DNA of 13,986 bases from a virus. Its lineage: Duplodnaviria > Heunggongvirae > Uroviricota > Caudoviricetes. A program made the position numbers and the translations under genes. How positions within the stretch are numbered: position 1 is the stretch's first letter; each line of letters begins with the position of its first letter. Below the pieces are notes generated by a model. It was given only the letters and a program-made list of their open reading frames with translations, was not told where the DNA came from and ran no database searches. Below are positions 2,247-13,986 of this stretch, piece by piece. The stretch is taken from the IMG/VR virus record IMGVR_UViG_2695420382_000006; one strand, written 5' to 3'.

Positions 2247-3077
2247 ACCGGACTCCTCCTGCGATCCCTTCTGATACTGTCATCAGCATTACGTCATCCT
2301 CCGTCATGTCCGCCACATCCGGGGAAGCGGGGATAACTTCATTCCCGTCCGGGCCAAAGCGGACACCTCCGGCAAGCCCTGCCGCTTTCTGCATCAGCAC
2401 ATCATCTTCAGGCTCTTCGTCAGCCTCGCGCCGGTTCAGCAGACTGAAATCCAGCGGATGCATCTCCGGATCGCTGAAAAACAGGCTGAGCACGGTGTAC
2501 GTCAGCCCGGAAAAGTGCATATCCAGCAGAACATCATGAAAATAATGGGTACTGTAAAAGCGGTGCCAGTCGGCATACTCCGTGGATGACATCCCGGCAA
2601 GCATGGCGCGCCAGTCGGGTCGCCCCATCTCACGCGCCAGTTTCAGGGCAAAACTCAGCTCACCGTCGAACACTTTCCCGCAGAAACAGGCTCTGCAGGC
2701 CCGGCGTCCTCTGCCTGTTCAGGAGCATCATTCACCACAAACTCATACATACCGGACAGCCGGTACACCACGTTTTCAGCATGAGAAATTGCCTCTGTGG
2801 GCCAGGTGGTAAGCACTTCCTGCTCAATCTGTTTAACGGCTTCATTCATGGACGGCATCTGCGTCTTCTTCGGATGGTTATGCCACAGGGACATCGCAAC
2901 CACAAAAGCGCCGGTTCTGATGGCGTCTTCCACAGTAAACTTCCGGTTGCTGTCTGACTCCGCCTGTTCTGCCTGCCGTTTCATCAGGTCGAGATGCTCA
3001 ATACGCTGCAGGGCTGACAGTTCAGAAAGCGTGACGGTCACACCGTTATGTTCAAATGATTCGGTTTTCAGGAACAT
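2239..3077 (-). CDS. T: Tail assembly chaperone G-T fusion produced by programmed -1 ribosomal frameshift (T-frame part 2239-2679)
   Basis: The 2239-2673 ORF begins with GTG immediately after the slippery heptamer and reads (M/V)FDGELSFALKLAREMG. Its stop at 2239 overlaps the H start at 2246. Arrangement matches lambda G/G-T. Confidence 0.85.
2655..3077 (-). CDS. G: Tail assembly chaperone gpG
   Basis: 140-aa ORF ending ...PVSAGKCSTVS; stop TGA at 2655-2657 confirmed by manual translation. Position between V and T/H as in lambda. Confidence 0.9.
   Translation of the reverse strand: MFLKTESFEHNGVTVTLSELSALQRIEHLDLMKRQAEQAESDSNRKFTVEDAIRTGAFVVAMSLWHNHPKKTQMPSMNEAVKQIEQEVLTTWPTEAISHAENVVYRLSGMYEFVVNDAPEQAEDAGPAEPVSAGKCSTVS
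2673..2679 (-). promoter_or_regulatory. Programmed -1 frameshift slippery heptamer G GGA AAG (minus strand) for G-T synthesis
   Basis: Plus strand 2673-2679 is ctttccc, so the minus strand reads GGGAAAG within G codons GCG GGA AAG, six codons before the G stop. The -1 frame continues into the T ORF. Confidence 0.85.
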
Positions 3078-3092
3078 CGCTGACTCTCCGGA

Positions 3093-3833
3093 TTAACTGG
3101 CGGTGACGTTGATTTCTGCAACCGCAGCAAACTCACCATTACCAGATACGACCGGAATGTTGACCTTGCCTGCAGCAACACCTTTCACGGTGATGGTCAT
3201 ACCACTGACCGACACGGTGGCTTTTGTTTTATCCGCAGACACCGCACGGAAGCTCTTGTCGGTTGCGCCATCCGGCTGGAATGCCACGGTCAGCGTGGTG
3301 CTCTGCCCTTTCACTACGGAAGCACTGGCGGGTGTCACCGTCATGCCGGTCGTCGCCGTCACCGTGCTGCGATCTTCTGCCATCGACGGACGTCCCACAT
3401 TGGTGACCTTCACCGTGCGGGTAATCACCTCCTTCGCCGTCACCGCCTTACCGATACTGCTGACCCAGCCACGGAACACATCGACCGTGCCGTTCGGGAA
3501 GCGGATTTTATAGGCACGGGTATCACCTTCATTAAACCACGCCAGCAGCGCCTGCTGCCCCTGCTCTCCGGGCATCCACGCCAGCGTGAAGCTGGTATCT
3601 CCGGCAGATTTCTGCCCCTGCCCGGTCGCAGTCCAGTCTGCATCTTCATCATCGAGATAGCTGTCGTCATAGGACTCAGCGGTCAGTTCGCCGGGCGTCA
3701 GGTCTTTAACTTTTGCCAGACGCGACCAGTCAACGTCTGAAAGCGGGTTCGCATAAGGGTCACCGCTCCCCTTATAAACCCACAGGGTGGTCCCGGCACC
3801 TTTCACCGGCATTGTAGGATTTGGTACAGGCAT
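3093..3833 (-). CDS. V: Major tail tube protein gpV, with C-terminal Ig-like domain
   Basis: 246 aa from [20 protein letters not shown]. Start ATG at 3833 is preceded by GAGGA. The listed ORF 3093-3863 carries a 10-codon upstream in-frame extension that is probably not translated. C-terminal ~90 aa are T/V/S-rich, typical of an Ig-like fold. Confidence 0.9.
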
Positions 3834-8448: not shown

Positions 8449-12149
<3,701 letters not shown>

Positions 12150-12175
<26 letters not shown>

Positions 12176-12695
12176 TCAGCAACCCCGGTATCAGTTCATC
12201 CAGCGCGGCTGCTTTGTTCATGGCTTTGATGATATCCCGTTTCAGGAAATCAACATGTCGGTTTTCCAGTTCCGGAAAACGCCGCTGCACCGACAGGGGG
12301 ATCCCGTCGAGAATACTGGCAATTTCACCTGCGATCCGCGACAGCACGAAAGTACAGAATGCGGTTTCCACCACTTCAGCGGAGTCTCTGGCATTTTTCA
12401 GCTCCTGTGCGTCGGCCTGCGCACGCGTAAGTCGATGGCGTTCGTACTCAATAGTCCCTGGCTGGAGATCTGTCTCGCTGGCCTGCCGCAGTTCTTCAAC
12501 TTCCCGGCGCAGCTTTTCGTTCTCAATTTCAGCATCCCTTTCGGCATACCATCTTATAACGGCGGCAGAGTCATAAAGCACCTCATTACCCTTGCCACCG
12601 CCTCGCAGAACGGGCATTCCCTGTTCCTGCCAGTTCTGAATGGTACGGATACTCGCACCGAAAATGTCAGCCAGCTGCTTTTTGTTGACTTCCAT
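12150..12695 (-). CDS. nu1: Terminase small subunit gpNu1 (cosB-binding)
   Basis: 181-aa ORF MEVNKKQLADIFGASIRTIQNWQEQGMPVLRGGGKGNEVLYDSAAVIRWYAERDAEIENEKLRREVEELRQ...; lies directly downstream of cosB. Confidence 0.92.
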
Positions 12696-12867: not shown

Positions 12868-12890
12868 CCGCGCGCCTTCCGCCCCGTAAC
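12868..12890 (-). promoter_or_regulatory. cosN-like terminase nicking region, variant core GGGCGGAAGGCG instead of lambda GGGCGGCGACCT
   Basis: Reverse complement of 12861-12892 reads caggttacg-gggcggaaggcgcgcggg-ttttcg; both flanks match lambda cos while the central hexamer differs. Confidence 0.6.
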
Positions 12891-12915
12891 CTGTCGGATC
12901 GCCGGAAAGGACCCG

Positions 12916-12935
12916 CAAAATGATAATAATTATCA
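12916..12935. promoter_or_regulatory. Fur-box-like operator: perfect 7-1-7 palindrome TGATAATAATTATCA (12921-12935)
   Basis: 12921-12935 is a perfect inverted repeat TGATAAT-A-ATTATCA, matching the 7-1-7 reinterpretation of the Fur box; the extended 19-mer matches about 16/19 of GATAATGATAATCATTATC. Sits in the AT-rich intergenic region between cos and the plus-strand accessory ORF. Confidence 0.35.
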
Positions 12936-13083
12936 TCTACATGTCACAACGTGCATCTACGCCATCAAACCACGTCAAATAATCAATTATGACGCAGGTA
13001 TCGTATTAATTGATCTGCATCAACTTAACGTAAAAACAACTTCAGACAATACAAATCAGCGACACTGAATACAGGGCAACCTC

Positions 13084-13317
13084 ATGTCAACGAAGAACAG
13101 AACCCGCAGAACAACAACCCGCAACATCCGCTTTCCTAACCAAATGATTGAACAAATTAACATCGCTCTTGTTCAAAAAGGGTCCGGGAATTTCTCAGCC
13201 TGGGTCATTGAAGCCTGCCGCCGGAGACTGTGCTCAGAAAAAAGAGTTTCGCCTGAAGCAAACAAAGAAAAGAGTGACATTACTGAATTGCTCAGAAAAC
13301 AGGTTAGACCAGATTGA
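13084..13317 (+). CDS. Small hypothetical protein (77 aa), possible ribbon-helix-helix DNA-binding fold
   Basis: ORF MSTKNRTRRTTTRNIRFPNQMIEQINIALVQKGSGNFSAWVIEACRRRL...: a basic N-terminus, then a putative beta-strand (RNIRFP) and two short helices, the layout of RHH proteins. Weak SD (AGGG) 8 nt upstream of the ATG. Divergent from the late operon. Confidence 0.45.
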   Translation: MSTKNRTRRTTTRNIRFPNQMIEQINIALVQKGSGNFSAWVIEACRRRLCSEKRVSPEANKEKSDITELLRKQVRPD

Positions 13318-13374
13318 AGCAATTTAGATAATCGTGCAGACTACGCCCCCTCATATCACATGGAAGGTACTACA

Positions 13375-13785
13375 ATGGCTCAGGTTGCCATTTTTAAACA
13401 AATATTCGATAAAGTGCGAAATAATTTAAACTATCACTGGTTTTATTCTGAACTAAAACGTCACAATGTCTCACATTACATTTACTATTTAGCCACAGAG
13501 AATATTCATCTTGTTCTTGAAAACGATAATACGGTTTTAATAAAAGGACAGGGTAAGGTTGTAAATGTAAGATTTTCAAAAAATAAATGCCTTATAGAAG
13601 CCACCTTAAAAGGATTCAAATCAGGAGAGTTATCATTTTACGAATACAGGAAAAATCTTGCTACAGCAGGGGTTTTCAGATGGATTACAAATATCCACGA
13701 AAACAAAAGGTATTACTATACCTTTGATAATTCATTACTCTTTACTGAGAACATACAGAACACTACACAAATATTTCCGCACTAA
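13375..13785 (+). CDS. Hypothetical protein, 136 aa (alternative start 13360 gives 141 aa); possibly the cos-proximal accessory protein seen downstream of bor in lambdoid prophages (YbcV/DUF1398-like, unverified)
   Basis: Clean ORF with good SD GGAAGG 7 nt upstream of the ATG at 13375. Markedly AT-rich relative to the structural genes. Same strand as the RHH-like ORF. Confidence 0.55.
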
Positions 13786-13986
13786 ATCATAACGTCCGGT
13801 TTCTTCCGTGCCAGAACCGGACTCGCTGGCATGATGAAATATGTGTACCCGGTAACCCCGGTGTGCATCGTTTTTGATTATTCCCGCACACTCGCGCAGA
13901 AGGAGTTCCCCGTCGGGCTACGGTCTCTGTTAATACGGGAATACGGCGACGATTGGATTTGCCCCTATATTTCCAGACATCTGTTA

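Follow-up and report, generated by a model that had tools for sequence, protein, structure and literature searches.

What do the small genes that lambda-type prophages carry next to cos contribute, and which signals might switch them on? The question is raised here by a stretch of 13,986 nucleotides (hereafter the window) from a viral record of the Caudoviricetes (IMGVR_UViG_2695420382_000006), which is a lambda-type prophage running opposite to the conventional lambda map and in which two plus-strand open reading frames (ORFs), ORF1 and ORF2, lie between positions 13084 and 13785. They encode proteins of the DUF3950 (YlcI/YnfO) and DUF1398 (YdfO/YbcV/lambda p78) families, respectively; both families are already catalogued and nearly ubiquitous in E. 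coli, and neither gene is new as a feature. The useful addition lies beyond these known families: an FNR site, and perhaps a Fur site, in the adjoining DNA is probably the DUF3950 gene's own. The explanation that we favour, with a confidence slightly better than even for the whole of it, is that the region is the accessory region normally present at the right end of lambda-type prophages, equivalent to ynfO-ydfO in the Qin prophage of E. coli K-12.

Two conserved genes next to cos

The features on which the argument draws are the following, with coordinates in the window:

13084 to 13317, plus strand: ORF1, 77 amino acids (aa), a basic protein of the DUF3950/YlcI-YnfO family (Pfam, NCBIfam, RefSeq identity)
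13375 to 13785, plus strand: ORF2, 136 aa, DUF1398 family, orthologue of YdfO, YbcV and lambda p78 (Pfam, PDB 2HH8)
13010 to 13023: perfect FNR box TTGATCTGCATCAA, its centre 67.5 nt before the start codon of ORF1
13045 to 13050, plus strand: GACAAT, candidate -10 hexamer, proposed from spacing
12916 to 12934: Fur-box-like sequence including the palindrome ATGATAAT-A-ATTATCAT, 30-50 bp from cosN
13305 to 13332, plus strand: sigma-70-like match TAGACC-16-GATAAT (9/12 consensus positions), extending from the 3' end of ORF1 into the 57-bp gap
13362 to 13367, plus strand: GGAAGG, Shine-Dalgarno-like, 7 nt before the ORF2 ATG at 13375 (sequence inspection)
13843 to 13875, plus strand: terminator-like hairpin (13843-13868) followed by TTTTT (13871-13875), from RNA folding
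about 12873 to 12884: cosN cohesive-end segment, from alignment with lambda-type, DLP12 and Qin cos regions
12150 to 12695, minus strand: Nu1 (Pfam Phage_Nu1, E 2e-101)
10250 to 12175, minus strand: gpA-like large terminase gene
13954 to 13986: terminal 33 nt of an IS2 (IS3-family) insertion element, context outside the module, 168 bp downstream of ORF2

ORF1 matches Pfam PF13132 (DUF3950) at 72.8 bits (cut-off 25), NCBIfam NF041551 (YlcI/YnfO) at 35.2 bits (cut-off 30) and phrog_949, and is 96% identical to RefSeq YlcI/YnfO proteins. Its core motif, K/R-x-I-R-F-P ... N-F-S-A-W-V-x-E/D-A-C (residues 13-18 and 36-45), is retained in homologues of as little as 36% identity, including those of 36-56% identity found in other contexts, and all 26 aligned members of its family match DUF3950. 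ORF2 covers positions 1-119 of the 119 of Pfam PF07166 (DUF1398) at 147 bits (cut-off 22), aligns over residues 1-140 with the nuclear magnetic resonance (NMR) structure of YdfO (PDB 2HH8; E 1.4e-69, ~80% identity), matches phrog_413 and is 76% identical to lambda-type p78. The original prediction, made from the sequence without database searches, had suspected in ORF2 one of the cos-proximal DUF1398/YbcV-type ORFs of lambdoid prophages, and the Pfam match identifies it as such. The prediction also named conservation in homology searches as a check, and the region is indeed matched in 5061 of 5426 complete E. coli genomes and in 177 phage records, lambda among them. No function assigned to DUF1398 or DUF3950 was found in the literature.

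Both ORFs were found at the positions first proposed, and their location beside cos is confirmed by Nu1 and cosN. The reading frame of ORF2 is open from an ATG at 13360 (141 aa), and a second in-frame ATG at 13375 gives 136 aa; the 57-bp gap and the 136-aa length both presuppose the latter, which is also the RefSeq start of the same gene. The Shine-Dalgarno-like GGAAGG before it is identical in five alleles, which diverge directly after it. The NMR construct 2HH8 was made from the longer form, so that either start is possible. The claim that the two ORFs sit in markedly AT-rich DNA holds for ORF2, whose 31.4% GC is the lowest of any 411-nt stretch in the window (mean 55.2%, standard deviation 5.4%), but not for ORF1, which at 44.4% is only moderately low (Nu1, 52.7%; gpA-like gene, 54.0%). 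At the composition of the ORF2 region, 141 open codons have a chance of ~9e-6, and an ORF of at least 136 aa arose in 3 of 2000 shuffles. The ratio of non-synonymous to synonymous change (dN/dS) is ~0.05 over ORF1 codons 1-50, with 17-18 synonymous and 4-6 non-synonymous changes relative to the diverged allele of locus L056, and ~0.2 among ORF2 alleles, whose proportion of synonymous differences reaches 0.47. Judged by these ratios and the ORF statistics, ORF1 and ORF2 are protein-coding genes under purifying selection.

When six cos regions are aligned, the 200 bp between cosN and the start of ORF1 prove nearly invariant. Together with the first ~50 codons of ORF1 they make up a block that every lambda-type relative has, and the block is retained in locus L006 although cosB and Nu1 have been replaced there (Nu1 36% identical). 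Homology among alleles is lost at about codon 50 of ORF1 and regained at ~13847; codons 1-50 (13084-13233) are the conserved domain, and the C-terminal tail varies. The cargo between these borders is DUF1398 alone in the window and in Qin, and ybcW/p79, DUF1398 and bor in lambda and DLP12. L056 has no DUF1398 gene; the AT-rich DNA in its place is unrelated and includes a hydrophobic ORF of 52 aa on the other strand, which has no NCBIfam match. Moreover, the same ORF1 (97% identical) accompanies ORF2 alleles that are just 76% identical. Since homology breaks at codon ~50 and the downstream content differs, the unit is, on these alignments, a conserved cos-flanking block with an exchangeable cargo slot and no fixed gene pair. 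The DUF3950 gene of this L056 allele (3074-3550, cargo included) encodes 61 aa with a different tail and follows the same cos block. The terminator-like hairpin at 13843-13875 marks the right border of the slot, L056 homology resuming at 13847; a consensus terminator scan did not call it.

The region had been described as bearing the signature of a horizontally acquired 'moron'. This is apt for an AT-rich accessory insert beside cos that exists in three versions among collinear relatives (from ORF1 codon ~50 to ~13847), and less so for the two genes, which are not one acquired unit; the deviating composition, likewise, is that of ORF2 (31.4% against 55.2% GC), ORF1 being at 44%. Candidate signals of its own consist of the FNR box, the promoter-like site before ORF2 and the hairpin with its T-run, transcripts having been reported for the K-12 homologues only. 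The lambda morons bor and lom are similar in lying among late genes, in their variable content, in being dispensable for plaque formation, in the atypical composition that ORF2 shares and in having their own candidate promoter and terminator elements. They differ in encoding outer-membrane proteins with known phenotypes, whereas neither ORF1 nor ORF2 has an evident signal peptide or transmembrane segment, as read from the sequences and not from a predictor, and lysogen expression is documented for the K-12 cryptic-prophage copies only.

The closest counterpart is Qin, where nohA (minus strand) is followed by 389 bp with cos, ynfO (b4533, 77 aa), 57 bp and ydfO (b1549, 136 aa). Its ORF1 allele is 97% identical across all 77 residues and preceded by the same FNR and Fur sites; its ORF2 allele has ~76-80% amino-acid identity, and the window differs from Qin in its variant cosN and in the IS2 end downstream of ORF2. 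The right end of lambda and the ylcI-ybcW-ybcV-borD region of DLP12 share the cos-flanking block, the DUF3950 domain (95% identity over 55 aa) and DUF1398 (76% identity), with the DUF3950 and DUF1398 genes on the bor strand. In lambda, HK630 and DLP12, by contrast, there are ~560 bp more, with the opposite-strand p79/ybcW between the two genes, and lambda and DLP12 carry another, shorter ORF1 tail (YlcI, 64 aa). DLP12 further differs by a PdhR site in the ybcV-ybcW divergent region (PMC7660256). The window ends in IS2, so that any bor gene of its phage would lie out of view. In HK630 (L001 389-553) the DUF3950 domain between cos and p79, 95% identical over 55 aa, is unannotated, and the lambda record J02459.1 lists no feature under the match to the DUF3950 ORF. 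The DUF3950 and DUF1398 genes belong to the uncharacterised gene sets of E. coli and lambda, and the lambda DUF3950 copy is itself unannotated.

FNR and Fur sites in the cos-flanking block

The FNR box is unique in the window, where 0.01 would be expected by chance, and the 24 nt around it are the reverse complement of the published K-12 nohA/ydfO and nohB FNR site, which was found by chromatin immunoprecipitation with microarrays (ChIP-chip) and confirmed by electrophoretic mobility shift assay by Grainger et al. (PMC1802558). This 24-mer is present exactly in 47 of the 68 loci compared, including lambda-type HK630, DLP12 and Qin. Boxes with at least 9/10 matches also stand upstream of the ATG in more distant loci, at 67.5 nt in L056, 66.5 nt in L063 and 63.5 nt in L065; the last two carry DUF3950 genes of 49% and 46% identity in genomic islands whose flanks are no longer alignable, and the chance of a box at such a distance is 0.001-0.002 per locus. 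If GACAAT is taken as the -10 hexamer, the FNR box falls at about -40.5/-41.5, a class II geometry, with a predicted start at ~13057-13058. A -10-like hexamer occurs at the same offset in L056 (GATAAT), L065 (GACAGT) and L063 (TAAAAA/AAAAAT). Because the spacing of the box and the -10-like hexamer recur in these diverged homologues, we infer that an FNR class II promoter drives ORF1 transcription.

The Fur-box-like sequence agrees with the consensus at 16 of 19 positions (0 in 200 shuffles), and a sigma-70-like promoter match directed leftward (12947 to 12920, minus strand) overlaps it. It lies 233 nt from the start of Nu1, the same position as the K-12 nohA -233 site, at which Fur binding was confirmed by gel shift (PMC2189734). 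The published Fur and FNR binding both concern K-12 sequence identical to the block in the window. The FNR site hitherto assigned to nohA/nohB probably belongs to the DUF3950 gene, and the Fur site perhaps does so as well, which suggests that the earlier ascription of both sites to nohA/nohB may have picked the wrong neighbouring gene. If the FNR promoter is real, it provides a condition under which to seek a phenotype for two genes that have resisted assignment.

A further putative promoter, TAGACC-16-GATAAT, lies before ORF2 in a region nearly invariant in five alleles and could possibly serve ORF2 separately. Two candidate operators were dropped: the inverted repeat 12982-13014, since 8 bp of one of its arms are deleted in L056, and the repeated 9-mer TGCATCWAC, which is in part simply the FNR box.

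Proposed regulator, cargo and competing explanations

In the favoured explanation, ORF1 would be transcribed rightward from the FNR-activated class II promoter (box at ~-41.5, -10 GACAAT) and, given such activation, anaerobic lysogens would produce the protein. This would be a small, dimeric DNA-binding regulator of the ribbon-helix-helix (RHH) type, with a strand at ~T12-F17, helix A at 19-32, a turn at G33-N36 and helix B at 37-50. ORF2 would be cargo, a soluble protein whose expression would depend on read-through, on a promoter of its own in the gap or on both; it would probably be silenced by H-NS given its 31% GC, and would benefit the lysogen rather than lytic growth.

The RHH fold, already proposed for ORF1 in the original prediction, is our best guess; it is plausible and, in our estimate, probable, if unproven. 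The protein has an isoelectric point of 10.9, and its AlphaFold2 model (monomer; mean predicted local distance difference test score, pLDDT, 67) consists of coil at residues 1-18 and helices at 19-32, 34-52 and, weakly, 60-73, the first two flanking G33-S34-G35-N36. A profile of diverged DUF3950 proteins aligns in register with Arc and with the Arc/Mnt alignment, below threshold (P 0.002-0.003, probability 10-13%; the Arc sequence used agrees with PDB entries), and a DUF3950 profile does so with the RHH protein CdbA (E 0.27, not significant). Like Arc and Mnt of phage P22 (RHH; Pfam Arc PF03869), ORF1 is small and phage-encoded and has two helices after a short N-terminal segment, and its residues 12-33 are in register with Arc 9-30 (N-I-R-F-P against N-L-R-W-P, helix A and the Gly turn). 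The similarity to Arc is not significant (hhalign probability 13%, P 0.002), and ORF1, unlike Arc and Mnt, has a long basic arm at its N terminus and a further helix at its C terminus. Two DUF3950 alignments, searched against the PDB as hidden Markov models, yielded no significant RHH match, Foldseek of the ORF1 model against the PDB and BFVD gave nothing significant, and no Pfam Arc or RHH family was matched at gathering level.

Genomic context supports a regulator role for DUF3950. In the satellite-like element L046, a DUF3950 gene diverges from the primase operon across three 12-nt direct repeats of the GTGCACAAACAC type, an arrangement typical of a regulator. Direct repeats (GTGCAC(A)NACAC / GTGTGCATAC, spaced by 20-25 bp) precede diverged DUF3950 genes in three satellite- or island-like elements (L046 3879-3933, L047 507-552, L067 2642-2789) and may be operators or iterons; the FNR box was not found at these three loci. 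The L046 gene (4001-4390), placed between the integrase and the primase operon, encodes P0302, a 129-aa protein in which the DUF3950 domain is followed by an N-terminal segment of Terminase_2 (E 1.7e-6).

Reports on homologues bear on when and where such genes are expressed. In K-12, at least 50% of RNA-seq samples show ybcW and ylcI as a convergent excludon (PMC12288877), ybcV mRNA is 10-fold lower in a pdhR mutant (PMC7660256), and an ionic liquid raises ydfO expression 12- to 116-fold (PMC4077768). Knock-down of lambdap78 gave an efficiency of plating of 1.3-1.9, leaving plating unaffected, and the lambda genes of this region were scored as non-essential for lytic growth (PMC10695390). Two published statements were set aside: that YdfO overexpression raises oxidative-stress resistance (PMC4077768), for which the cited paper (PMC3105296) in fact reports YfdK, YfdO and YfdS of prophage CPS-53, and that ydfO is essential (PMC8229198), which conflicts with the viability of a strain without all nine cryptic prophages (PMC3105296). 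ORF2 itself has a grand average of hydropathy of -0.41. The labels 'head protein' (phrog_413) and 'envelope protein' attached to DUF1398 were not adopted either; they are without support, and no signal peptide or membrane segment is evident.

Several points weigh against the favoured explanation. The published lacZ fusion of this fragment was weak, with only marginal FNR effects or none; judging from its primers it ended at the nohA ATG, so that the ORF1 direction apparently lay outside it (PMC1802558). A consensus promoter scan found no sigma-70 promoter before ORF1, and the ORF1 transcript start, its FNR-dependent expression and DNA binding by its product are predictions. For ORF2, we infer H-NS silencing from base composition only; its AlphaFold2 model, built from 20 close homologues, reached a pLDDT of 47 and was not used for fold searches, and nothing indicates its role. 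In addition, the more than 1000-fold rise of ybcV/ybcW reported in BL21(DE3) may reflect late transcription of DE3 (PMC7827196).

Could ORF1 and ORF2 instead form a toxin-antitoxin or abortive-infection/exclusion pair, ORF1 being an RHH antitoxin and autorepressor and ORF2 a toxic effector? Their linkage is broken in several ways: in lambda and DLP12 the two genes are ~690 bp apart with the oppositely oriented p79/ybcW between them, L056 retains ORF1 without DUF1398, DUF1398 genes stand without a detected ORF1 homologue nearby (L034; ycgX beside bluR), diverged DUF3950 genes have no DUF1398 partner, and near-identical ORF1 copies accompany well-diverged ORF2 alleles (97% against 76% identity). 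PADLOC and Rfam searches gave no significant match, no Pfam toxin family was matched, and strong toxicity is made less likely by the recovery of an ASKA clone overexpressing YbcV, whose glycogen phenotype was scored (PMC2853380). The reading was rejected on its broken linkage and the lack of a toxin-family match, and we regard it as very unlikely; the doubt that the original prediction had expressed about a type II toxin-antitoxin pair was well founded. A second possibility gives ORF1 an accessory function in packaging or at cos: as a DNA-binding protein it would act on the neighbouring cos site, for instance by helping or blocking terminase at cosQ/cosN or by protecting the prophage cos. The constant distance of ~200 bp between ORF1 and cosN would suit it, as would the near identity of the intervening block even where cosB and Nu1 are replaced (L006), the better conservation of the cosN-proximal ~125 bp than of synonymous sites in ORF1, the fusion to a Terminase_2 segment in P0302 and the listing of YlcI/YnfO genes in capsid-forming phage-inducible chromosomal islands (PMC13612085). 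By lambda analogy, though, ORF1 would run antisense to late transcription, a placement ill suited to a late function; cosmids need no more than small cos fragments to be packaged; and the known cos elements together with the Fur and FNR sites can explain the conserved DNA. The non-essential score of the lambda genes (PMC10695390) counts against it too, and diverged homologues occur in islands without a detected cos or terminase. A packaging role for ORF1 is thus disfavoured on account of its orientation and of homologues far from any detected cos, and we rate it as highly improbable.

It might also be that ORF1 is conserved mainly at the DNA level, through cis elements of the cos flank or recombination, its product being non-DNA-binding or unimportant and ORF2 the sole functional cargo. 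The flanking non-coding DNA is indeed conserved as well as or better than ORF1, a mosaic junction falls within ORF1 at ~codon 50, and the RHH evidence is sub-threshold. Set against this are the excess of synonymous changes relative to L056 (17-18, with only 4-6 non-synonymous, in 50 codons), the retention of K-x-I-R-F-P ... N-F-S-A-W-V-x-E/D-A-C by homologues of 36-56% identity elsewhere and the DUF3950 match of 26 out of 26 aligned members, and we consider this reading quite unlikely. Somewhat less so, but still doubtful, is a bolder proposal, in which the block as a whole (Fur box, FNR class II promoter and RHH-like DUF3950 domain) would be a host-signal switch kept by lambda-type cos phages. 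The lysogen would make the RHH regulator under anaerobic, iron-dependent conditions, and its targets would be the neighbouring cos/late-operon DNA or the cargo of the slot. If so, gut-like conditions would bear on how the prophage behaves or how fit the lysogen is, and FNR control, with a published site so far assigned to nohA/nohB and nohA/ydfO, would be a trait of the DUF3950 family.

Surroundings of the region and its apparent host range

In lambda, late transcription from pR' yields a single transcript that covers the lysis genes and cos and continues into Nu1. A 27-gene late transcript and the polarity of CRISPR interference have been described for it (PMC10695390). The statement that the two ORFs are divergent from the late operon is correct with respect to Nu1, but by lambda analogy both would lie within the late transcription unit and antisense to it, as bor does.

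The pair also seems to occur in assemblies of unrelated taxa (Pseudomonas, Kitasatospora, Flavobacterium, Brevibacillus and others), but this wide spread was rejected as probable contamination by lambda control or spike-in DNA: the contigs concerned (L012-L033, L038-L040 and many of ~3.5 kb in ENA) carry the lambda right end, measure ~3.5 kb or ~48 kb, and often have frameshifted ORFs. The ~3.5-kb size presumably corresponds to the nanopore control amplicon. Such contamination inflates the apparent host range of the DUF3950 and DUF1398 families.

The end of the lambda record maps to position 12885 of the window, and the reverse complement of cosN reads GGGCGGAAGGCG, against the canonical lambda GGGCGGCGACCT, with 5 changes in 6 nt. 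The canonical form was present in all 11 other cos-spanning loci fetched, and the variant is common to 14 IMG/VR viral contigs; because it recurs in this way, the variant is a natural cos type. Close by, the minus strand carries a cosQ-like GGGTCCT at 12908-12914, which we take to be cosQ.

At the other end, similarity to related phages stops at 13953, where the IS2 sequence begins; its 33-mer has 10,489 matches in E. coli genomes, at sites whose annotation reads IS2 transposase. By lambda analogy the insertion would lie in the path of the late transcript, and the prophage may for this reason be defective.

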